Positions 2,147-46,775 of a DNA stretch of 64,000 bases are shown here, one piece after another; within the stretch, counting starts at the first letter, position 1; each line of letters begins with the position of its first letter. Below the pieces are notes generated by a model. The model searched no databases. It saw nothing but the letters and a program-made list of their open reading frames with translations, and was not told the DNA's origin. The position numbers were made by a program, and so were the translations under genes. The stretch lies in sequence record EF437941; one strand, given 5' to 3'. The stretch comes from Escherichia phage Phi1.

Positions 2147-4009
2147 TTACATGTGCTTAACGCGGTTTACCATCTCGGAGTGTTTCCCGTGGTTAAATGG
2201 ACGCAGATCAACAGATCCAAGATATCCACTAACGCGACGGATAACATTCATTTTTTCCAGATTATCATTGCCGCAATCAGGACAAACAAAACCAGTCTCG
2301 GTCGCTCTCATTTCCTTAGTAGATCCGCATACATGACACACATCAGAAGGAGTATTAACACCGAAGTAGTGCAATTTATCCATTGCATAGTCTACTACAG
2401 TTTCAAGACCTTTCAGGTTGTTTTTCATGTCTGGGAACTCAACATAAGAGATCATGCCACCGGACGCCAGCCAGTGATAATCTTTCTCAAAGTCGATTTT
2501 CTCAAATGGAGTGACTTTCCGGTCTACGTCGAGGTGGAATGAGTTGGTGTACCAGTCTTTATCGGTAGCGCCCTTAACAATACCAAATTGCTCTCGGTCC
2601 AGTCGATTAAATCGATAGCAAAGGCTCTCGGCTGGCGTACCGTAAAGACTAAACCCAAGTCCGGTTTCGTCCTTCCATTTTTCAGTATAATGACGCAAGA
2701 TCTTAAGAATATGTTTACCGTATCGCTGCACATCTTCCGAATCAAACGGATGAACACCAAACAGGACGCTCAATACCTCATGTAAACCAATATATCCAAG
2801 AGAGATACTAGCGCGACCATCTTTCAGCACTTCAAAAATTTCATCGTTTTGATGAATACGGAAAAATGCACCTTCGGTATACAGTACAGGAGCAACATTG
2901 GCTTTAGCCCCTTTTAAAGCGTCTACGCGACTCATGAGCGCATCAAAGCAAATAGGCATACGATTAGCTAGCTCTTGTTCGAATAGCTCAATTCTGCGCA
3001 TTACAGACGCTTTACCAGCACGACGCGCGGCAATAAGGGCAATACGCGGAAGATTCAGAGTCACAACACCTAAGTTATTACGTCCGTCTAATACTTCTTC
3101 GCCTTTCTCATTATGCCACACACCCAGGAAGCTACGACAACCCATCGGGCTAACCGGAACACTAGATCCAGTGATACTACGGTTATTCTTCGCAGAGATA
3201 TAATCAGGGGTAAGACGCTTACTAGAACATTCCAATGCAAGTTGCTTAATGTCGTAGTTCGGATCTTCCGGGTTAAGGTTTAATCCTTCTTCTAAGAACA
3301 TCACCAGCTTAGGAAACACCGGAGTTATACCATCTTTACCTAAACCTTTAGTTCGAACTTTCAGGATCGCTTTCTGAATCAGTTTTTCTTCCCAGCTAGT
3401 ACCCATACCAAATGTTAAAGTCACAAAAGGCGTTTGACCGTTGGTGGAGAACAAAGTGTTGATTTCATATTCCAACGCTTGATACCCGTCTAGCGTTTCT
3501 TTTTCTGTCTTCTCTTGTGCATAGAGAGTATCAGCTTTGATTCCGTAGGTTTCGGCATCAGCAAGGTGTTTATGATATGTTTTCTCAACATACGGTGCTA
3601 ACACCTGATCGATGTTTGCAATTGTGGTCCCGCCATATTGATGACTTGCCACCTGTGCGATAATTTGAGCGGTTACAGCACAAGCAACACCGATCGATTT
3701 AGGACTTTCGATTTGTGCGCTACCCAATTTAAAACCATTCTCTAACATGTCTTTGAGATTAACAAGACAGCAGTTAGTAAACGGCATAGCGGGTGCATAA
3801 TCCATATCATGATAATGAATATCACCGTCTACATGCGCTTTATAGATGTGCTCAGGTAACACGGTTTTAGCAATCTGTTTAGACACAGCGCCAGCAATCA
3901 GATCTCGACGTGTCGGGAATGTTCGCGCGTCTTTGTTCGCGTTCTCTTTGCTTACTTCGTTTTCTTTACCCGTTGCGATCTCTGTAATGTCTTTGATTAG
4001 TTTTTCCAT
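2147..4009 (-). CDS. nrdD: anaerobic ribonucleoside-triphosphate reductase (class III, glycyl radical enzyme), uninterrupted
   Basis: 620 aa; C-terminal glycyl radical motif RVSGYLG and Cys-x2-Cys zinc ribbon (CHVCGS, CPDCG); single continuous ORF, no intron. Confidence 0.95.
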   Translation of the reverse strand: MEKLIKDITEIATGKENEVSKENANKDARTFPTRRDLIAGAVSKQIAKTVLPEHIYKAHVDGDIHYHDMDYAPAMPFTNCCLVNLKDMLENGFKLGSAQIESPKSIGVACAVTAQIIAQVASHQYGGTTIANIDQVLAPYVEKTYHKHLADAETYGIKADTLYAQEKTEKETLDGYQALEYEINTLFSTNGQTPFVTLTFGMGTSWEEKLIQKAILKVRTKGLGKDGITPVFPKLVMFLEEGLNLNPEDPNYDIKQLALECSSKRLTPDYISAKNNRSITGSSVPVSPMGCRSFLGVWHNEKGEEVLDGRNNLGVVTLNLPRIALIAARRAGKASVMRRIELFEQELANRMPICFDALMSRVDALKGAKANVAPVLYTEGAFFRIHQNDEIFEVLKDGRASISLGYIGLHEVLSVLFGVHPFDSEDVQRYGKHILKILRHYTEKWKDETGLGFSLYGTPAESLCYRFNRLDREQFGIVKGATDKDWYTNSFHLDVDRKVTPFEKIDFEKDYHWLASGGMISYVEFPDMKNNLKGLETVVDYAMDKLHYFGVNTPSDVCHVCGSTKEMRATETGFVCPDCGNDNLEKMNVIRRVSGYLGSVDLRPFNHGKHSEMVNRVKHM

Positions 4010-4607: not shown

Positions 4608-5782
4608 GCACGAACTTTTTTCTTTACTGCTTTCACCTTCTGGCGAATTGCTCGAATCTCTTCGATCTCTTTTTCAGTCTCTTTAACAATTTCTTTGCGA
4701 TTCTGAATATCTGTATCGAGATTATCATCAAGTTTAGGCAGCATGTCAATCAAGAACTTTTTAAAGTCTTTCAGGTTTCGGATAACAGCACCTTCACCCA
4801 TTACCGCCACCCCTACACCATCCGGCAGATCACCAAACAGCTTAACCAGTTCAGATAGATGACCATGATCTTCTAGTGCTTCTTCCGGTTCAGATGGCAG
4901 TTCAACAAAGTAATAACGTTCATCATTGCTGATCAGGTGATACCAGCAAAGCCCAAAAGATTTAGGAGTATATTCTACACCACCAACTTCAACCGCGTCA
5001 ACACTTCCGAAAGAATCTACTTTAGTTACCTTAAATCCATGTTCCAGCGTTTTAATAATTTCAATAACATGACTGGATACGGTTTCAGTATTAAACCAAT
5101 GAGGCAAATTATGTGGATTTGGTTTGTATCGTTCGCCTACTTTAAATCTCTGACCACGCTCTTGCATACGGACATATTCAACTCGCGTGATTTCCGCGAA
5201 GTATTCAAATTCGCTACCGTCAAACAAGCAATTCCATTGATCACAAAAACGATCCGCCTTAACGGTTTCACCTTTCGCGGTGATCATGGTAGCCGACCCG
5301 TGCAATTCTTCTTCAACTAAAAAGCCATATTCGACAAAATCAACAAGTTTCATGGCTTCTTTGTGCTCTGGATCATGCTCTCCCCAGAATCGCTTAAATT
5401 CTTGCAAACCTTCCGGGGTAAACGAATAACATTTACCTTTTTCAAAGTAAGTCGGCATTGCATCCTCTTTCTTGTTCATCGCTTCGTATGCCTCTTTTGA
5501 GATACGTTTAAAGAATTTACGCTCATCGTGCATAAGCATAACAGCCCAATAATAAACGATATCCTCAGCGGAATAAACTACATCTCCAGCTTCAATAGTA
5601 ATAACATGACCGTGGTCATCTTTTTCTAATACTTTAAAGCCCTTTTCTACGATTCCAGCAACCCGAATATGACCACGGCGCGAAGCATCGGTCGGAATAG
5701 TTGAATAGCGAGAAAAGTCTAGAAACTCATCTTTACCACCTTCACGGAATGCATAGTAATGCCCTTCAAAGAATTTAGCCAT
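4604..5782 (-). CDS. hypothetical protein (paralog family A, two repeated domains)
   Basis: 392 aa; shares a GFKVL...ERKFFKRI(S/T)K domain with the two downstream-adjacent genes; stem-loop promoter at ~5814-5842. Confidence 0.6.
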   Translation of the reverse strand: MAKFFEGHYYAFREGGKDEFLDFSRYSTIPTDASRRGHIRVAGIVEKGFKVLEKDDHGHVITIEAGDVVYSAEDIVYYWAVMLMHDERKFFKRISKEAYEAMNKKEDAMPTYFEKGKCYSFTPEGLQEFKRFWGEHDPEHKEAMKLVDFVEYGFLVEEELHGSATMITAKGETVKADRFCDQWNCLFDGSEFEYFAEITRVEYVRMQERGQRFKVGERYKPNPHNLPHWFNTETVSSHVIEIIKTLEHGFKVTKVDSFGSVDAVEVGGVEYTPKSFGLCWYHLISNDERYYFVELPSEPEEALEDHGHLSELVKLFGDLPDGVGVAVMGEGAVIRNLKDFKKFLIDMLPKLDDNLDTDIQNRKEIVKETEKEIEEIRAIRQKVKAVKKKVRA

Positions 5783-5813
5783 AATATAATCCTCTCGTTG
5801 TTTAAATGGGAGT

Positions 5814-5842
5814 ATCTTACTACTCCCGTTTCATCATGTCAA
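5814..5842 (-). promoter_or_regulatory. early promoter with stem-loop (PeSL-like)
   Basis: TTGACA-N17-TAAGAT; inverted repeat GGGAGTA/TACTCCC. Confidence 0.55.
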
Positions 5843-6405
5843 GCGTTAAATGACTTTTGGATCTCTTTCAGTTCAGCTACTTTATCGGCGCTATACTTTG
5901 CTTGATGTTCCATGCGCTTAAGCTCACCTTTGATATAGGTTTCTAGCTTAGGTTTATTCTCAATCAGAAAATCTTTCAAGTCATCGGCATTTTTAAAGTA
6001 TAGCTGATTATCAAAGCTAAAATCTTCCAGCGTCAATGATACCAAAGAAGACTTCGCAAACAAGTTAATCAGATCTTCCAGAGATTCTTCTTTCTTAACT
6101 GGTTTCATTTCTTCAAACTGCTTTTTAGTGATGCGTTTAAAGTATTTGCGCTCGCTTGCATCAATCATTATTGACGCGCCCTCATAATCATGAGTTTCTA
6201 CCAAATACACTTTACCCATAACATTAACCGTAAGAACTTTAAAGCCCCGGTGAAGCACACCATACAGGAACTTGTTATGTTGTGGATAGCGTTTAACAAA
6301 TTCCTCTGCGGACTCAGAATTACGGAAAGTGTAATAACGACCTCGTTCAAAAACAGCATCATTTGAAGACTTAGACGGATACAATTTATACGTTTTCTGT
6401 ACCAT
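5839..6405 (-). CDS. hypothetical protein (paralog family A)
   Basis: Shares the N-terminal domain with 4604..5782; second ATG with AGAGGAT RBS chosen as start (track start 6423). Confidence 0.55.
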   Translation of the reverse strand: MVQKTYKLYPSKSSNDAVFERGRYYTFRNSESAEEFVKRYPQHNKFLYGVLHRGFKVLTVNVMGKVYLVETHDYEGASIMIDASERKYFKRITKKQFEEMKPVKKEESLEDLINLFAKSSLVSLTLEDFSFDNQLYFKNADDLKDFLIENKPKLETYIKGELKRMEHQAKYSADKVAELKEIQKSFNA

Positions 6406-6755: not shown

Positions 6756-7229
6756 CTATCTTAATCTTTGTATGAATTGTTTCTTATACTTCTTCGTGAT
6801 TTCTTCTCGTGTATCAGCGTCGCAGTAATCGAAACCTTCTGCGTCCATAATAGCAACCATCTCCGCTCGTGTCAAGCGTGAAAATCGTTTTACTTTATCA
6901 ACGGCATATTGAGGATGTAAATGATTGTTGGTGTAGTCTCCTTTGATGTAATTAACATAGTTTGTAGCCCAAACAACGAAATCAGCACCTAAAGCACCAA
7001 CACCAAACCGTTTAAAGTCTCCGGTCAACGATCCTTCTAGGCGGTTGCAACACGAATGAAGCAATCCCCTTACGCGGCCTTGCCCTTTCCCTTCTAGATC
7101 GTGGTCGTGGTCAAGATGGTTTTTGCTCATATCCTCAAAAAGTGGCAATTGACAAAGGGGGCAAATGCCCCCCTGTTTTTCGAATAGTTCTTGTTTGTAC
7201 TCTTTAGCACTCTTAGCAGTCAGTAACAT
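6756..7229 (-). CDS. 49: recombination endonuclease VII (Holliday junction resolvase)
   Basis: Strong similarity to T4 gp49 as recalled: N-terminal Cys pair CPLC, HLDHDHDL, RGLLHSCCN; start at ATG after GGAGGGTGA. Confidence 0.9.
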   Translation of the reverse strand: MLLTAKSAKEYKQELFEKQGGICPLCQLPLFEDMSKNHLDHDHDLEGKGQGRVRGLLHSCCNRLEGSLTGDFKRFGVGALGADFVVWATNYVNYIKGDYTNNHLHPQYAVDKVKRFSRLTRAEMVAIMDAEGFDYCDADTREEITKKYKKQFIQRLR

Positions 7230-10302: not shown

Positions 10303-10581
10303 CTACATGTCTTGCAGAGCATAAAAGCATTTTTCTTCGTAGTCATAGAAAATGTCAAAGTATGCTTTTTCTACATACTCACCATTGATCCAAGCGGCAG
10401 TAACAATCAGAGTGGTCCAGTTAGATCCGCTCTCAACGGTAAAGGTTTTAATACCCAGCTTAACAGCCAAGTCACGAGCAAACTGGTCGCAACCACGACA
10501 GGATGTGATATTGGAAGTTTTGATTTTAAAGCCACCGCGAGTTTTAGAAATTTCTACTTTAGCGAAAGACAGGTTGCTCAT
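10303..10581 (-). CDS. hypothetical protein
   Basis: ORF behind stem-loop promoter ~10624-10652 and conserved AAGGAGAATCAAA-ATG region. Confidence 0.55.
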   Translation of the reverse strand: MSNLSFAKVEISKTRGGFKIKTSNITSCRGCDQFARDLAVKLGIKTFTVESGSNWTTLIVTAAWINGEYVEKAYFDIFYDYEEKCFYALQDM

Positions 10582-10623
10582 TTTGATTCTCCTTAAGAAA
10601 GTATGTTTCGTTTTGATGTGTGT

Positions 10624-10652
10624 AGTATAGGGGATACGTGATCCCCTGTCAA
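10624..10652 (-). promoter_or_regulatory. early promoter with stem-loop in spacer (PeSL-like)
   Basis: TTGACA-GGGGATCACGTATCCCC-TATACT. Confidence 0.6.
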
Positions 10653-10659
10653 CAACTTT

Positions 10660-10965
10660 TTATGATTTTAGTGAATTAACTACTACATCAAAATGATGTA
10701 CAGAGTACACCTTACGAAACACGTATTCATCATGTTTAGGAATCGCCCCTAACCGCTCTATTTCGCTCGCTGACACGATAAACCGCTTATCTGGTGCATT
10801 TACCTTATATGCTTCAACAACGCACGGAAAACGCGTTTTAGCGAGTTCTGGATAGTTTTCCGAATCCATCAGGACAATGAATACCCTATTACATTGATTG
10901 TAGAATCCTGTTTTTGATTTCATCAAGTTTTCTTCTCTGTGAAATTCGTGCAATCTTCCTTTCAT
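10660..10965 (-). CDS. hypothetical protein
   Basis: Tiled ORF; start ambiguous (track 10989), overlaps the upstream gene. Confidence 0.4.
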   Translation of the reverse strand: MKGRLHEFHREENLMKSKTGFYNQCNRVFIVLMDSENYPELAKTRFPCVVEAYKVNAPDKRFIVSASEIERLGAIPKHDEYVFRKVYSVHHFDVVVNSLKS

Positions 10966-11230
10966 GATTTCGTTGGTTCCTGTCTTCATAGTCTACCCAC
11001 TCAACAAGGTCTTTACCTAACTCGAAAGCCCATTCTCGGTCCTGCTTTACGTTTTGTAGGTATGGGCTTTCCGACACTCGACGAAGTGATGTTGTCGTAA
11101 CAAGAATGATCCCAGGAATGGTCGGATGTTCCTTGCCATATACAATAGGACGCGAGTTACTATCAATACCTTGTAAGAAGGTGTATCCTGAATCACTTAG
11201 AATCATATACTTTTTCATTTCACACATCAC
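10889..11230 (-). CDS. hypothetical protein
   Basis: Tiled ORF, ATGA overlap with the upstream gene. Confidence 0.45.
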   Translation of the reverse strand: MMCEMKKYMILSDSGYTFLQGIDSNSRPIVYGKEHPTIPGIILVTTTSLRRVSESPYLQNVKQDREWAFELGKDLVEWVDYEDRNQRNHERKIARISQRRKLDEIKNRILQSM

Positions 11231-11487
11231 AGTTTCCTCAACCAGTTATTAAAGCGAGTAAACCATGATGCTTTTCGTGCTTCTTCTTCGGCTTTGCACG
11301 CACGCAAACCACTGAAACACCATTCATAATCATCACTGAAACATGATTCAACAGGAACACCCGCATTTCGTAGTTCTCTGGTCGTTATCATGAATCCTTG
11401 ACATAATGGGCGACCTTCAACAATGATAGGAAGTTTAACTTTTTCCATGAAAGTATACCCAGCACGGTCAATAATTTCAATCTTCAT
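11227..11487 (-). CDS. hypothetical protein (paralog family B)
   Basis: MKIEIID..G..FM..VKLPIIVEGR...YEWCF pattern shared with 11505..11702. Confidence 0.55.
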   Translation of the reverse strand: MKIEIIDRAGYTFMEKVKLPIIVEGRPLCQGFMITTRELRNAGVPVESCFSDDYEWCFSGLRACKAEEEARKASWFTRFNNWLRKL

Positions 11488-11504: not shown

Positions 11505-11702
11505 TTATACCGCCCAGGCTTCATTTGCACGAAAACACCATTCATACTCAGGAAAATAACCTTTAATTGGTACGCCAGCTTTTTGTAGTTCCTGCGTTTC
11601 TACAAGATAATCAAGCCCATAACGACGACCTTCCACGATGATAGGAAGTTTAACGCCATTCATGAAAGAAAATCCACCGTCATCAATAATTTCAATTTTC
11701 AT
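11505..11702 (-). CDS. hypothetical protein (paralog family B)
   Basis: Tandem paralog of 11227..11487. Confidence 0.55.
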   Translation of the reverse strand: MKIEIIDDGGFSFMNGVKLPIIVEGRRYGLDYLVETQELQKAGVPIKGYFPEYEWCFRANEAWAV

Positions 11703-12404: not shown

Positions 12405-12624
12405 TTCTTTTATATGGTACTATAACAGGATTAATACAGCAAGCACCAATTACGTTATGAGCACCACAATTTAAACATTTATAGTCATGGAACTTATTAA
12501 GAAATCGACCAAACTCATAACCGACTAGCGCCGCATGTACTTGAGTCTCGATCTCATCCATATCAGCCAATGTTTTAACCTTCATAGTATAATCCTCAAA
12601 TGGTAGTTTTGCGAAGATGGTCAT
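12388..12624 (-). CDS. hypothetical Cys-containing small protein
   Basis: CLNCGAHNVIGACC motif; tiled ORF. Confidence 0.45.
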   Translation of the reverse strand: MTIFAKLPFEDYTMKVKTLADMDEIETQVHAALVGYEFGRFLNKFHDYKCLNCGAHNVIGACCINPVIVPYKRNETEE

Positions 12625-12886
12625 TACATGCTTTTAATGCATCGGTCGCGGTGTCATAGCGAGTATTATCATAGCACCAATAACCATCTGTCAACTGATA
12701 AATTAATCCATCCTTTTTAGCTTCGATGAAAGACAACTCTTTGAAAGTTTCTACTTTCTTTGCTGATACTCCACGGTCACGGCGTTTATAGAGTTTAGCT
12801 AAAATGCGTTCAGCTTGTTCCTCTTTATCGCCAGACAGATCCCAGATGATGCTTCGGATATGCTTGATTAATTGTTCAGTGGTCAT
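12596..12886 (-). CDS. hypothetical protein
   Basis: ORF behind TTGACA-N16-TATAAT promoter at ~12916-12943 and AAGGAGAATCAAAG-ATG. Confidence 0.55.
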   Translation of the reverse strand: MTTEQLIKHIRSIIWDLSGDKEEQAERILAKLYKRRDRGVSAKKVETFKELSFIEAKKDGLIYQLTDGYWCYDNTRYDTATDALKACNDHLRKTTI

Positions 12887-12915
12887 CTTTGATTCTCCTT
12901 AGTTGGTATGCGTGC

Positions 12916-12943
12916 ATTATAGCATTGTGATTATCTTTGTCAA
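12916..12943 (-). promoter_or_regulatory. early sigma70-type promoter
   Basis: TTGACA-N16-TATAAT directly downstream of the terminator. Confidence 0.6.
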
Positions 12944-12946
12944 CAC

Positions 12947-12982
12947 CCAAAAAACAAAAAAGGCTATCCCGAAGGATAGCCC
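12947..12982 (-). terminator. intrinsic terminator after the gp38-like gene
   Basis: Hairpin GGCTATCCTTCGGGATAGCC followed by TTTTTTGTTTTTT on the minus strand. Confidence 0.7.
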
Positions 12983-12988
12983 ATAAAA

Positions 12989-13765
12989 TTACACGCGAGC
13001 ACCGTAGATCGTGCCTACTTTATCCCAACGAGGGGCATTACCAGTAACGGCTTTACCAGCAGCACCACCGTTATATTCTGTACCGTTACCCTGAGTATTA
13101 CATCTTCCTCCAGCAGCACCAACGTTACCTCCAGCACCGCCTGTATATGCACTAAGAGACCCCGAACCAACAGATCCTTTACCTGGAGCGGAAATGGAGC
13201 CAGCGGTTGCACCAGAACCCATATTAGAGGAAGACCCACCAGCACCGAATGGGCGACCACCGCCACCACCAAATACTAGTATACCCCTGTTACCGCCACC
13301 ACCACCGCCACCGCCGCCAACGATAGCACCGTTATTTGTAATTCGTAGACGTGTACCGATAGCGTTATTGATTGCGTTTCCACCAGCAGCGCCAGCAGCG
13401 TTACTACCACCATTACCCCCACGTCCGTAGACAGTCACACCGGAGTTAATGATCAATGTTACATATTCGTTTGTTAACGAGCTAGGGAAGTCAAGACAAG
13501 GAACGCCAGTAGAATGAGAAACAATATTACCAGTGATAGTAATTACTACCGGAGTAGATCCTTGTGCTTTCATCCAGTTAATAAGAGTGTCTTTATTGTA
13601 AGAGTTACTAGCACCAATGCTATAATGAATCTCTTTAGAGCGTCCGACCATTGCCGACATATACGCCGGACGACCTAAGCGTACAGCTTGCATTGCGGCG
13701 CTCATCCACCGTTGACCAGTCTCGGACACCGCAGATGATCCTACCCATCCAGAAGATATTGCCAT
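12989..13765 (-). CDS. 38: glycine-rich protein, gp38-like receptor-recognising adhesin (T2-type architecture)
   Basis: N-terminus GWVGSSAVSETGQRWMS followed by several poly-Gly motifs separating short variable segments; about 258 aa; flanked by hairpins. Confidence 0.55.
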   Translation of the reverse strand: MAISSGWVGSSAVSETGQRWMSAAMQAVRLGRPAYMSAMVGRSKEIHYSIGASNSYNKDTLINWMKAQGSTPVVITITGNIVSHSTGVPCLDFPSSLTNEYVTLIINSGVTVYGRGGNGGSNAAGAAGGNAINNAIGTRLRITNNGAIVGGGGGGGGGNRGILVFGGGGGRPFGAGGSSSNMGSGATAGSISAPGKGSVGSGSLSAYTGGAGGNVGAAGGRCNTQGNGTEYNGGAAGKAVTGNAPRWDKVGTIYGARV

Positions 13766-13819
13766 AAAATTTCCTCACAAGAAAAGCCCCAATTAAGGGG
13801 CATTGATTGATAATATTAC

Positions 13820-14041
13820 TTAGATGACCTCTGCTTCACCATCCAGGAAGAAAGACCATGTTTTGTTAGGATAGCGAAGCGCCCATGATTCAGCAGTTTT
13901 AACACCAGCTTCGAACAATTGACGGCTGGTTACTTTAGCCATACCATCTTCGATGGCAACGTTTTCAATAATCATCGGGTACTTAGCGCCACGCATGAAA
14001 CCGAAACCAGCGGAAGATTTGATAATTTTAACAGTTGCCAT
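13820..14041 (-). CDS. hypothetical protein (paralog family B-like)
   Basis: Start at ATG after AAGGAGAATCAAAA; KII...GFGFM...YPMIIEN pattern resembles 11227..11487. Confidence 0.55.
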   Translation of the reverse strand: MATVKIIKSSAGFGFMRGAKYPMIIENVAIEDGMAKVTSRQLFEAGVKTAESWALRYPNKTWSFFLDGEAEVI

Positions 14042-14080: not shown

Positions 14081-14109
14081 ATTATGCAATAACACCGGAA
14101 CGATGTCAA
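14081..14109 (-). promoter_or_regulatory. early promoter (PeSL-like)
   Basis: TTGACA ... CATAAT with a GT-rich inverted repeat; conserved leader follows. Confidence 0.5.
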
Positions 14110-14412: not shown

Positions 14413-14759
14413 GCCAGACCTCGCAAAACACTAATAGCATAATCATGCTGGTTATTCATAATATCAATTGCATTGTGATAACGAGCTAAACCATCAAGGA
14501 TAAATTCTTGTTTATCCTGTTTCAGTTTGGTATCACGCGCAGCCATAAGAGCATCGAGAACAGGTCCAAAGTGATTATCTAATTCATCTTCGGTTGCAAT
14601 GTTTCCTATTGCATCGTCGATCCGTGATTCTAATGCTTGCTTTTCGTTGATCACTTGCTGGGTATATTCCAACACATCAAGAATATCGCGGGTAACGTCG
14701 CCATGATAAGGTATCCCCGCATGAAGATGATCAATTAATCGCTGAATATCAATGTTCAT
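14409..14759 (-). CDS. hypothetical protein
   Basis: Tiled ORF with ATGA overlap. Confidence 0.45.
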   Translation of the reverse strand: MNIDIQRLIDHLHAGIPYHGDVTRDILDVLEYTQQVINEKQALESRIDDAIGNIATEDELDNHFGPVLDALMAARDTKLKQDKQEFILDGLARYHNAIDIMNNQHDYAISVLRGLA

Positions 14760-15319: not shown

Positions 15320-15350
15320 TGCATTATGCTATACCATGATCCGGTTGTCA
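15320..15350 (-). promoter_or_regulatory. early promoter
   Basis: TTGACA then -10-like TATAGCATAAT; conserved AAGGAGAATCAAA-ATG leader follows. Confidence 0.5.
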
Positions 15351-15354
15351 ACAC

Positions 15355-15388
15355 CTAAAAACGAAAAAGCCACCCTTTCGGATGGCTT
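15355..15388 (-). terminator. intrinsic terminator
   Basis: Hairpin AAGCCATCCGAAAGGGTGGCTT plus TTTTTCGTTTTT on the minus strand. Confidence 0.7.
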
Positions 15389-15702
15389 TTGATTATATTT
15401 TATTCACGTCCATTTGTATAGTAGTGTTTGAATCGACCGTAACCAGTTTCAATGGTCATTGTTCTTTGGTGAACAATAGCCCAATAACCGTTACAGGAAT
15501 ATTGCAGATACAAATCTTTACCTTTCATAAACTCATTAAAGATTGTTTCTGCCAGTCATAATAGACAACATCTTCAAGTTACCCATCCATGCGGGTCTTC
15601 CGATTCGGCAGTAATTGAACACGCGAAAGTATGAGGAAGCCAAATGGTTGTGTTAATGCTAGTTTTCTTTTACTTCTGGTATGTATCCCACTGTGACTAA
15701 CA

Positions 15703-16101
15703 TTAAGCCAGTCGAGTGAGTTTATAAATTGTTTTAAAGCATAGAGCTTTGATATCGTCTAAAACACTCTGTAACGAGCTATCAACATCATTATAAATCT
15801 CACTAGCCATTTGCGTTAACTCTTGCAAATAGGCAATTTCGCTAATCTCCTTGCGGACGACCAACGTTGGCTGATAACGACCAGTGATCCCAATATTGGT
15901 TTCAGTGAAATTATCAACCAATTCTTGCATTTCAAGATAGAACTCTTCTAGAGCCTTATGTTTTGCATAAGACCCCGGACCAGTTACCCCAAAATGCGCA
16001 GAATGCATATAAGTAACACTCATCAGACATTCACCGATAAAGCGGTCAACTTTATTAGCTTTCCCATCTTCGGACGTCTTTCGAAAATCACTGAATTTCA
16101 T
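15703..16101 (-). CDS. ferritin-like / Dps-like protein (tentative)
   Basis: HFGVTGPGSYAKHKALEEFY resembles the Dps signature (HWNVKGPNF..H..FEE.Y) recalled from memory; start at the internal ATG (MKFSDF). Confidence 0.45.
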   Translation of the reverse strand: MKFSDFRKTSEDGKANKVDRFIGECLMSVTYMHSAHFGVTGPGSYAKHKALEEFYLEMQELVDNFTETNIGITGRYQPTLVVRKEISEIAYLQELTQMASEIYNDVDSSLQSVLDDIKALCFKTIYKLTRLA

Positions 16102-16390
16102 GTTCTCGATTCTCCATATTATGCAACATAACAAATTGTTGTGCGGCATATTCCCCCATAATAAAACACTGCTTAGAATCCATACATTTACTACGAGCAT
16201 ACATCTTCATAATATGGGCATGAAATTTCTGGCTGGTTTCAATGGAAGGAGATATTTTGTTTACATATACTATCATTGCACCGTCGAAATAATCAGTAAA
16301 GTCACCAGTTGGATCATATTGATCAGCACTAACGCTTCCGACCGCAGTAAAGCATATTGCCGCTGTTAGAGTTTTACGAATAAATGACAT
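16088..16390 (-). CDS. rI: RI-like lysis-inhibition antiholin (signal-anchor periplasmic protein)
   Basis: N-terminal hydrophobic signal; Cys-x6-Cys ... GEYAAQQ segment resembles T4 RI as recalled; adjacent to tk as in T4. Confidence 0.5.
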   Translation of the reverse strand: MSFIRKTLTAAICFTAVGSVSADQYDPTGDFTDYFDGAMIVYVNKISPSIETSQKFHAHIMKMYARSKCMDSKQCFIMGEYAAQQFVMLHNMENREHEIQ

Positions 16391-16458
16391 AAGTCATTCC
16401 CCCAGATTTAAAATATTCAGTTATATTTATAATCTGGGGCTTTATTTATGATTAACTC

Positions 16459-26093: not shown

Positions 26094-26122
26094 ATTGTAG
26101 GGGAGTTATCCTCCCCTGTCAA
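26094..26122 (-). promoter_or_regulatory. early promoter with stem-loop in spacer (PeSL-like)
   Basis: TTGACA-GGGGAGGATAACTCCCC-TACAAT. Confidence 0.6.
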
Positions 26123-44976: not shown

Positions 44977-46775
44977 AACAATTAATTAATATCGGTAACG
45001 TTGTTGATGACGGTACAGGTGATTATCTAAGAAAAGGCGGTCAAAAGATTAATGACAACTTTTCTGAACTTTATACTAAGCTGGGGGATGGTGATATCCC
45101 TCATGCATCCGGCGCGTGGAAAACTCACACACAACCAGTATTAAAACCAAATTTTGGTGATGCATGGGCGATTAATACAACGAACAACGCTGTTTCTGTT
45201 GAATTACCTAAAGGAAGCGCGAGTGATTACAATAAAACAATTAAACTTCGTGATGTTTGGCGCTCATGGGCTGCACATAACGTAACATTGAAGCCAGCAC
45301 AAGGTGATACCATTAAGGGATCTCCAATCGACCGTGAGTTGTATAAAGATTTCATGGATGTTGAATTGGTTTATTGTGCGCCCGGACGTTGGGAATATGT
45401 CGAAAATAAACGAGTAGATACTATCACCACTTCCGATTTAAGCACAGTCGCTAAGGAAGTTTATATTGCAACCGAAGGACAAACAGACTTCCCTAATGTG
45501 TTTGGTTCCAATACTTACAATATTCGAAATGTTGAAGTGTATTATCGCGGTAACTTGCTTTATTATGGCAAGGATTTAACCGATGATTCTAACTATGGTT
45601 CAATCGGTGAAAACGGTGATATTGTTCCGCTGGACGGTAAAAGCATTAAATTACGCTTCCCTTGTTCGGCGGGTGATACCATTCAAATCATCACTTATAT
45701 GGACGGTATCGCATCCTTCCGGTCAAGCTATATTACTCATACAATCCGCGTTTATGAAACAGGAATGACCACTTTGGAATCCATCCCAGGTGAAGTTTGG
45801 GTTGGTGAACTAGCTAATAAGAAAGAATTTACTAATGCGGAATTAGGCGTAAGTAAGAGAGATCTTATTAATCCAAATTCATTTGAATTGCTGATCAACG
45901 GCACACAAATGATTAAAGCGGGTGATGCGGATTTACCTTCCTTTATTTGTGAAGGCGCTGACGGTGAAACAGAAGAAACTTGTGCACTTGCTGGCGGTCA
46001 ATGGGTGGAATCTGGGGAAGATTATTCATTGATGTTCGACGAAAACAGCGTGGTGACCGGTATTAAATTATCTAAAGCACTAGATAACCGAGACACTATC
46101 ACTATTCGCTGGTTTAATAATGATATCGGAACATTAATGGAATGGGACGGTGTAGGCGGTATTAAAGAAAAAGCAGATAAAATCTATCTTAATAACGAAG
46201 ATGAAGTTACGCTGACAAATCGAATTGAATATACCGATTTCCAGAATCCAAGCCAAGCAACTAAACGCCCAATGGAAGATTATACAGGTCGTGTGATGGA
46301 TATCTATTCCATATTCGATATTTTCTATCCTATAGGCACAATTTATGAAAATGCGCATAACCCAGCTAACCCAGCGACATATATGGGATTTGGTACATGG
46401 GTACGTTATGCAGAAAAAGAATTTTTAGTTGGTTGGTCTTCTGACGCAAGCGATCAAAACTTCGCACTAAACAACAACGATCTTGATACACATGGTCAAC
46501 CTACACACACCGCAGGGGGTAACGGTGGTGATGTTGCATACCAGATCAAGAAAAATATGATTCCTGAATTACAGAGCGACGATCGAGTTCTTGTAAAAGA
46601 TGATAACGGAAATATTATTATCGGTGGTTGTCAGGTAGACCCTGATGCAGTAGGTCCAGCGTTTACCAAATATCGCGAAGATAATATTAAAGTTAATCAG
46701 GGAAATACCGACCCGTCAATGATTGGTATTCTTCCCCCATACAGAACTGTCTATCGTTGGTTAAGGGTAGGTTAA
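44973..46775 (+). CDS. 10: baseplate wedge protein gp10
   Basis: 600 aa; synteny. Confidence 0.8.
   Translation: MKQLINIGNVVDDGTGDYLRKGGQKINDNFSELYTKLGDGDIPHASGAWKTHTQPVLKPNFGDAWAINTTNNAVSVELPKGSASDYNKTIKLRDVWRSWAAHNVTLKPAQGDTIKGSPIDRELYKDFMDVELVYCAPGRWEYVENKRVDTITTSDLSTVAKEVYIATEGQTDFPNVFGSNTYNIRNVEVYYRGNLLYYGKDLTDDSNYGSIGENGDIVPLDGKSIKLRFPCSAGDTIQIITYMDGIASFRSSYITHTIRVYETGMTTLESIPGEVWVGELANKKEFTNAELGVSKRDLINPNSFELLINGTQMIKAGDADLPSFICEGADGETEETCALAGGQWVESGEDYSLMFDENSVVTGIKLSKALDNRDTITIRWFNNDIGTLMEWDGVGGIKEKADKIYLNNEDEVTLTNRIEYTDFQNPSQATKRPMEDYTGRVMDIYSIFDIFYPIGTIYENAHNPANPATYMGFGTWVRYAEKEFLVGWSSDASDQNFALNNNDLDTHGQPTHTAGGNGGDVAYQIKKNMIPELQSDDRVLVKDDNGNIIIGGCQVDPDAVGPAFTKYREDNIKVNQGNTDPSMIGILPPYRTVYRWLRVG

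Follow-up and report, generated by a model that had tools for sequence, protein, structure and literature searches.

A gp38 adhesin gene displaced into the early region of Escherichia phage Phi1, and its presence or absence at this site among Krischviruses

In most T-even-like coliphages the adhesin gp38 is what chiefly sets the host range, and it is a target of phage engineering and of receptor prediction from genomes. In the canonical arrangement its gene (g38) lies just 3' of gene 37 (g37), on the same strand and in the late operon, as in Tequatrovirus, where g38 occupies a late position between g37 and t. In Salmonella phage S16 and the T2/T6-type phages, g38 likewise comes directly after g37.

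The gp38 of phage T4 has the name and the link to the distal long tail fibre in common with these adhesins, but is otherwise an unrelated protein, a folding chaperone that is not part of the virion (Trojet 2011). The displacement of g38 in RB49-like phages is described in Trojet 2011, which cites Desplats 2002, as well as in a 2026 preprint, and is an established published property of these phages. Host-range mutants of RB49 carrying gp38 E230K, or E230K together with Y231S, show an extended host range, RB49-type gp38 recognises O antigens besides OmpA, and AlphaFold models of RB49 gp38 are available (PMC9569957, 2022); OmpA has been assigned as the RB49 gp38 receptor in a preprint. Two positions of g38 are known from Lutz 2025, in which FL37 and FL38 differ in this respect from FL04, FL15 and FL20. 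Promoter-early/stem-loop (PeSL) elements of the hyperplastic regions of RB49 and phi1 were described as inserting and deleting adjacent ORFs by Arbiol 2010, where g38 is not mentioned. What is added here is confined to the breakpoints of the g38 polymorphism and its co-variation with g37.

The DNA analysed (hereafter the window) is a stretch of 64,000 nucleotides of phage Phi1 (EF437941). Megablast searches with the locus and with the first 25 kb recovered RB49-like phages only (Krischvirus, Straboviridae), with 96-97.5% nucleotide identity to Cognac, Whisky, KFS-EC, JSE and RB49. By colinearity with RB49, the window runs from nrdG/nrdD through a minus-strand early block (gene 49, nrdC, dam, many ORFs of unknown function, g38, rI, tk, vs, regB, dmd, 57B and 57A) and genes 1, 3, 2 and 4, with which this leftward block ends, to the late genes on the plus strand (53 and 5 up to 24). 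Gene 38 sits in the minus-strand early hyperplastic region and comprises the following features:

12989-13765 (-): gene 38, encoding the 258-aa gp38, adhesin of the long-tail-fibre tip (ORF list, Pfam, PHROG, PDB, RB49 identity)
13646-13765 (-): Gp38_N, N-terminal gp37-attachment domain, codons 1-40 (Pfam PF21721)
12992-13633 (-): receptor-binding domain, codons 45-258, glycine-rich motifs alternating with variable segments (Pfam PF05268 and alignment with mosaic relatives)
13772-13776 (-): Shine-Dalgarno sequence GAGGA, 6 nt 5' of the g38 ATG (sequence reading)

The stop codon occupies 12989-12991 (-), and the encoded protein begins MAISSGWVGSSAVSETGQRWMS and carries the glycine motifs GGGGGGGGG (residues 150-158), FGGGGG (165-170) and GGAGGNVGAAGG (209-220). 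Residues 1-40 cover the whole of Pfam Gp38_N (PF21721, profile positions 1-40 of 40, E 3.9e-18) and residues 45-258 the whole of Pfam GP38 (PF05268, 'phage tail fibre adhesin', positions 1-218 of 218, E 1.8e-70), no further Pfam family being matched at E <= 1. Further matches are to PHROG 2056 ('tail fiber protein; host specificity', E 6e-97) and, over residues 1-256, to the receptor recognition protein of phage S16 (PDB 6F45_D, E 2.9e-50), which shares the order of N-terminal attachment domain and glycine-rich motifs and differs in the variable loops. Since the non-glycine first 115 residues align as well as the remainder, these matches are no artefact of low complexity. Pfam families are likewise common to this protein and the T2/T6/K3/Ox2-type gp38 of Tequatrovirus and Mosigvirus, and in the alignment with relatives the glycine runs are conserved and the stretches between them variable. 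A single-sequence AlphaFold2 model (mean pLDDT 33.8) was too low in confidence for use; from the full-length homology to 6F45_D and the published models of RB49 gp38 we infer a polyglycine-II sandwich fold as in 6F45.

The initial annotation had reported a 258-aa minus-strand ORF with this start and these poly-glycine motifs within 12947-13801, a span that corresponds to the g38 ORF plus its flanking stem-loops, and had likened it to T2-type gp38 adhesins. The ORF is present as described, and the proposed architecture is borne out by the two Pfam domains and the full-length S16 homology, its similarity to gp38 N-terminal attachment domains being evident both in the PF21721 match and in the alignment of S16 gp38 from residue 1. 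The gene has a single tblastn place in each Krischvirus record listed, and its product is intact and 82-98% conserved across the listed records that have it at this site. We are confident that it represents a single, functional gp38 adhesin gene of an RB49-like (Krischvirus) phage. Within g38, a tandem repeat search at default score found no array. A proline-rich ORF of 78 aa on the opposite strand (13194-13430, +) mirrors the g38 glycine codons and was rejected as a gene.

The RB49 orthologue (RB49p079, NP_891650) is also 258 aa long, with 97.7% amino acid identity, and differs at six sites (window residue, position, RB49 residue: S4K, S5A, H84Q, V149A, I161R, S201E); V149A, I161R and S201E fall in the receptor-binding domain. 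The residues altered in the RB49 host-range mutants, E230 and Y231, are both present in the window protein. Highest identity, up to 98.5%, is reached by the gp38 of TB34. The orthologues of RB49, JSE, Cognac49, Whisky49, ECD7 and TB34 agree with the window in locus, flanking ORFs, hairpin, terminator and promoter. Several GenBank records still label the product of g38 'assembly catalyst' or 'hypothetical protein'.

The canonical arrangement is absent from this locus. Tblastn with RB49 gp34-gp37, dc5 and holin queries found no homologue of gp35, gp36, gp37, dc5 or holin (t) in the 64-kb window, the sole match being a gp34-like repeat at 47.5-48.3 kb. Because the window has no g37, pairing of this g38 with an RB49-type gp37 is seen only in relatives. 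In RB49 the genes that come after g37 (151717-154656, +) are the 79-aa ORF dc5 and the holin gene, g38 being absent there; g38 (45367-46143, -) lies on the opposite strand, 54.7 kb away when the distance is counted through the joined ends of the 164,018-bp record. A Peptidase_S74 domain, an intramolecular chaperone, occupies residues 871-930 of RB49 gp37, as would be expected where a separate gp38 caps the fibre. The initial annotation, which had stated that g38 directly follows g37 in T2-like phages and is unlinked to it here, agrees with the canonical order seen in a Tequatrovirus control, with the tblastn result and with the separation of about 55 kb in RB49.

The signals and genes that surround g38 are:

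16424-16431 (-): late-promoter consensus TATAAATA, nearest upstream, 34 nt before rI (16088-16390) (motif search)
14081-14109 (-): sigma-70 early promoter TTGACA-17-CATAAT, 11/12, nearest upstream of g38 (promoter scan)
13820-14041 (-): 73-aa early ORF, function unknown, RB49p080 homologue (ORF list, synteny)
13786-13801 (-): stem-loop GCCCCTTAATTGGGGC, weak 5-bp G+C stem, T-run TTTTCTT to 13779 (sequence, fold)
12945-12982 (-): intrinsic terminator, 9-bp stem GGGCTATCC/GGATAGCCT (12961-12982) plus T-run (fold)
12916-12943 (-): early promoter TTGACA-16-TATAAT, 12/12, TG-extended, for the downstream ORF (promoter scan)
12596-12886 (-): 96-aa early ORF, RB49p078 homologue, right flank (ORF list, synteny)

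The upstream hairpin (13786-13801, -; centroid energy -11.2 kcal/mol) is equivalent to RB49 46164-46179, a predicted terminator ('38<--ORF080c'; Nolan 2006 supplement) with a TransTerm score of 90, at which read-through could be low. The GEC-3S record annotates both an equivalent hairpin and a promoter of the 14081-14109 type. The latter, which is Pe:46502 in RB49, lies about 320 nt upstream of g38 and precedes the 73-aa ORF; the 20 nt that separate the hairpin from the g38 ATG contain no promoter. The g38 transcription unit is ended by the terminator at 12961-12982 (-), which folds at -15.3 kcal/mol, is equalled by 1 in 200 shuffled sequences, and corresponds to RB49 45339-45360 ('ORF078c<--38', TransTerm 100). 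The promoter that follows (12916-12943) has a predicted RB49 counterpart, Pe:45336. The late promoter before rI, from which g38 lies 2.6 kb downstream, is the predicted Pl:48756 of RB49; the RB49 predictions have this as the only late promoter nearby, and their promoter/terminator map is the same as that found here (Nolan 2006 supplements). Between g38 and rI the sole late-promoter site with one mismatch, TATGAATA at 14453-14460, falls within an ORF and was rejected as a promoter. Neither Rfam, at gathering thresholds, nor a tRNA scan returned a match in the window.

This layout is the one that had been described at first: g38 on the minus strand among early genes ('early' being inferred from synteny and sigma-70 promoters), a hairpin upstream at 13786-13801 (-), a strong terminator and an early promoter downstream at 12961-12982 and 12916-12943 (-), and no late promoter nearby, the first exact TATAAATA upstream of the g38 start on the minus strand being that at 16424-16431.

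Lacking a promoter of its own, g38 would be transcribed by read-through of the weak hairpin. On balance the promoter at 14081-14109 is probably the main source of g38 transcripts, because it is only 320 nt away, the hairpin is weak and neither a motA orthologue nor a middle-promoter consensus is identifiable in RB49. A late contribution from the rI promoter at 16424-16431 is possible, and little g38 product would be needed if each of the six fibres bears a single gp38 cap, as it does in S16. A literature search for Krischvirus transcriptomics found none that was relevant. It is conceivable, though doubtful, that g38 is in essence a late gene, its transcripts arising solely from the rI promoter and running through two terminators, with the 14081-14109 promoter of no use to it. 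Its partner gp37 is a late protein, the TATAAATA before rI is the only late consensus within reach on the minus strand, and the interval between hairpin and g38 is devoid of promoters. However, such a transcript would have to cross the strong terminator at 15365-15390, which stands between the rI late promoter and g38, and then the hairpin at 13786-13801, and this with an 11/12 sigma-70 promoter just 320 nt upstream of the gene. Moreover, as no motA orthologue or middle-promoter consensus is identifiable in RB49, early promoters should be the main drivers of the region, and the tail-fibre chaperone gene 57A belongs to the same leftward block.

Within Krischvirus, g38 at the early site is a presence/absence polymorphism, the site containing either 909 nt ('filled') or a 37-nt promoter/stem-loop ('empty'). 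The filled state of the window is:

12911-13819 (-): 909-nt segment present in 'filled' Krischviruses, with hairpin, g38, terminator and promoter core (alignment with kvi, record survey)

The left breakpoint is the stop codon of the 73-aa ORF (window 13820). On the right, the sequence is again homologous to that of phage kvi from CATACCAAC (window 12910), a point immediately 3' to the -10 element in the promoter that follows g38. The 10-nt sequence AATTTTATGG, directly repeated at the g38 start and just past its stop, lies away from these breakpoints and was treated as chance. In the kvi early region, which has no g38, the homologues of the flanking ORFs are 61 nt apart and the 37 nt read TTGTTGACAC-GGGGAGAAATCCCC-GTATAATGATAAC, a sigma-70 promoter whose spacer holds a stem-loop. 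On either side of the early site, the window and the kvi-type Krischviruses (kvi and G5211, probably also MIZ4/5, FL04/15/20, LF73P4 and KMB43) are 95-100% identical. The kvi-type empty-site element has no copy in the window at up to 3 mismatches; promoters with a GGGG...CCCC spacer stem, as in kvi, occur at 10630-10652 and 26100-26122 (-), and a third match to this pattern is found on the plus strand at 7149-7173.

With a query spanning the junctions, Krischvirus records were sorted into 42 filled, 14 empty and 1 partial match, the filled count including GenBank/RefSeq duplicates and the records not being phylogenetically independent. The empty ones are kvi, LF73P4, FL04, FL15, FL20, G5211, G2248, G37-3, G2494, MIZ4, MIZ5, KMB43, Skers and UPWr_E1. 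When the RB49 g37 3' end plus dc5 was used as query, every empty record (14/14) matched dc5 alone, and the RB49-type g37 3' end was present in 40/42 filled records. The filled exception is KFS-EC, a single phage with a GenBank and a RefSeq record, whose g37 3' end is too divergent for megablast.

In kvi, which belongs to the species Krischvirus RB49, g38 lies directly between g37 and dc5; the gene follows g37 directly in two (kvi and G5211) of the three annotated empty-site fibre loci examined. From about codon 650 of g37 to about codon 158 of g38, kvi has 83-89% nucleotide identity to Tequatrovirus (HP3, Pinarejo, G2540-3), as against some 75% to RB49 g37 over the same stretch. MIZ4, MIZ5, FL04, FL15 and FL20 match the kvi g37-g38 stretch across g38. 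In the variable-loop region of g38, kvi and the window share 85% nucleotide identity, but the kvi gene differs in its Tequatrovirus-type N-terminal half and in being adjacent to g37. Phages of the G2248 type lack g38 at both positions and have, 3' of g37, a tandem of three ORFs, each of about 100 aa.

In our reading, g38 at the early site encodes the cap that belongs to the RB49-type gp37 tip, and the gene is dropped as one discrete module when another tip is installed. The polarity could be the reverse, with the kvi state ancestral in Krischvirus and the early copy a later relocation in one sub-lineage: nearly all other gp38-bearing Straboviridae place g38 after g37, and dc5 and the holin gene follow kvi g38 just as they follow RB49 g37. 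We consider this improbable, however, given that the 3' part of kvi g37 and the 5' half of its g38 are so close to Tequatrovirus (83-89%) and the native Krischvirus g37 so much less so (only ~75%), which points to recent import, and given that at least two tip modules, the kvi and the G2248 types, occur in empty-site phages, suggesting repeated replacement.

Segments of gp38 have been exchanged between genera. FriedrichMiescher, a Tequatrovirus with the order g37-g38-t, has a gp38 whose first ~45 residues are of Tequatrovirus type and whose remainder is nearly identical to the gp38 of GEC-3S. The N-terminal ~45 residues of gp38 are lineage-specific, the type found in the window differing from the Tequatrovirus-type N-termini of kvi and FriedrichMiescher. 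Receptor-binding parts thus move between displaced Krischvirus g38 and the canonical genes of other genera, and the attachment domain stays with its fibre lineage. Such segment exchange accords with the model of recombination at glycine motifs (Trojet 2011).

The early site itself resembles the PeSL elements of Arbiol 2010. Its downstream element (12916-12982) consists of a 9-bp stem, a T-rich tract and a consensus sigma-70 promoter, and the 24-nt T-run/-35 block of the 12916-12943 element is repeated at 15345-15368 with 88% identity. As in PeSL-plus-ORF cassettes, insertion/deletion is found among close relatives with breakpoints within regulatory elements. In contrast to such cassettes, the upstream boundary of g38 is a stem-loop without promoter, so that the PeSL is complete on one side only, and the cargo is an essential virion gene, whereas PeSL cassettes carry ORFans. 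The 37 nt found at empty sites do not amount to a simple chimera of the two flanking elements, so that homologous recombination between PeSLs is no more than a possible mechanism.

The suggestion that g38 is a relocated or cassette-borne host-range determinant fits the filled/empty polymorphism and the altered host range of RB49 gp38 mutants. As a whole the interpretation given in the initial annotation is supported, with the addition that the displacement is genus-wide and previously described. A more specific version, in which the 909-nt segment is a self-contained host-range cassette, moved, lost or exchanged as one unit via the promoter/stem-loop elements on its flanks, possibly as PeSL mini-circles, and expressed from a sigma-70 early promoter and not a late one, is offered tentatively and seems rather unlikely in its entirety.

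Two further readings concern the protein itself and are scarcely credible. That it is a T4-type chaperone, or 'distal long tail fiber assembly catalyst', which aids gp37 folding and stays outside the virion, has in its favour the label given in RB49 (AY343333), JSE (EU863408) and GEC-3S (HE978309), but this label is a legacy of gene numbering, and the protein matches the adhesin families PF05268/PF21721 alone, has full-length homology to the virion-bound S16 adhesin, belongs to a type to which T4 gp38 is unrelated (Trojet 2011) and is where the RB49 host-range mutations fall. Equally implausible is an unrelated low-complexity protein or a decaying extra copy supplanted by another gene, as its glycine-rich sequence, neighbours of unknown function and want of a late promoter might suggest, when the alignment is as good over the 115 non-glycine N-terminal residues as elsewhere, the ORF is uninterrupted and 82-98% conserved (listed filled-site records), those genomes yielded no other gp38 copy and g38 is lost only in genomes with a different fibre tip module.

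With gp38 taken as the virion adhesin, homology to S16 and T2 gp38 and published RB49 genetics suggest how it would act. The gp37 trimer would form with the aid of an intramolecular chaperone at the gp37 C-terminus, afterwards cleaved off; one gp38 would then dock on the exposed gp37 tip via its N-terminal domain of ~40 residues, and the C-terminal glycine-rich scaffold would present variable loops that contact the receptor, in RB49 OmpA and certain O antigens. At the genome level, the g38 slot in the early hyperplastic region, bounded by PeSL-type elements, behaves as a discrete module: Krischviruses with an acquired g37 3' end of another type lack exactly the 909-nt segment, and the kvi/G5211 end is accompanied by a g38 of its own beside g37.

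The analysis leaves current understanding unchanged. In practical terms, pipelines and receptor-prediction tools that seek the adhesin beside g37 will miss g38 in RB49-type Krischviruses. Should the reading of g38 as an early-expressed cassette be true, a structural adhesin would be produced some minutes ahead of the fibre protein it pairs with and would be inherited independently of g37. The filled/empty polymorphism provides a natural example of an adhesin and a fibre tip that co-vary without physical linkage.

The gp38 adhesin gene (g38) of phage Phi1 lies in the early region among short repeats and small open reading frames:

window 12981-12990 and 13762-13771, minus strand: 10-nt direct repeat without mismatches, AATTTTATGG; one copy at the start codon of g38, the other directly after the stop codon
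window 12937-12960 and 15345-15368: 24-nt T-run/GGTG/TTGACA block, 88% identity, in two terminator-plus-promoter elements
window 11411-11487 and 11626-11702: paralogous neighbouring small early ORFs, 77 nt at 79% identity
window 15400-15700, minus strand: ~300-nt stretch with ORFs of 42 and 35 aa only, flanked by rI.-1 on one side and by the strong terminator (15365-15390) on the other

The 10-nt repeat sits within a 25-nt repeat of 72% identity, and its copies differ in position from the breakpoints between Krischvirus genomes that carry the g38 segment and those in which the site is empty; its presence at both ends of the gene may be due to chance. The two elements containing the 24-nt block are repeated regulatory cassettes of the PeSL (promoter-early/stem-loop) type in the early region. 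The paralogous early ORFs resemble in their N-termini the 73-aa ORF located just upstream of g38 (13820-14041; MKIEIIDDGGFSFMNG versus MATVKIIKSSAGFGFMRG), and together these look like a small early-protein family of unknown function. Near the equivalent of window 15400-15700 the RB49 annotation has a 54-aa ORF, and no Rfam match was obtained for this stretch. A 78-aa proline-rich ORF antisense to g38 (window 13194-13430, plus strand) is not a gene; it mirrors the GGN glycine codons.

In public records (AY343333, EU863408, HE978309, MZ504877/8; matches H1-H21) the same g38 goes under differing product names: 'distal long tail fiber assembly catalyst', 'tail assembly protein', 'tail fiber adhesin' or just 'hypothetical protein'. 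Of these, the T4-derived 'assembly catalyst' is wrong for its adhesin family. Homologs and other small genes were found in the tail-fibre loci of other phages (locus-internal coordinates):

G5211 (MK327947), 5106-5905: g37-adjacent g38, split in the annotation into two ORFs that overlap (5106-5219, 5168-5905)
kvi, 2980-3759: gp38 with a Tequatrovirus-type N-terminal half and RB49-type variable loops
FriedrichMiescher, 4980-5765: gp38 with the first ~45 aa Tequatrovirus-type and the rest nearly identical to gp38 of Krischvirus GEC-3S
G2248 (MK327932), 10408-11314: three tandem paralogous glycine-rich ORFs of ~100 aa each, 3' of g37

In G5211, gp38 homology runs on through the frame change near codon 30, indicating a frameshift or a sequencing error. 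The kvi and FriedrichMiescher proteins are cross-genus mosaics. In Krischvirus G2248 the early site is empty and no gp38 match was found in the tail-fibre locus. Its three post-g37 ORFs, which gave no Pfam match and no useful PHROG match, share a GWF-IPNGW motif and may represent an alternative family of small tip adhesins.
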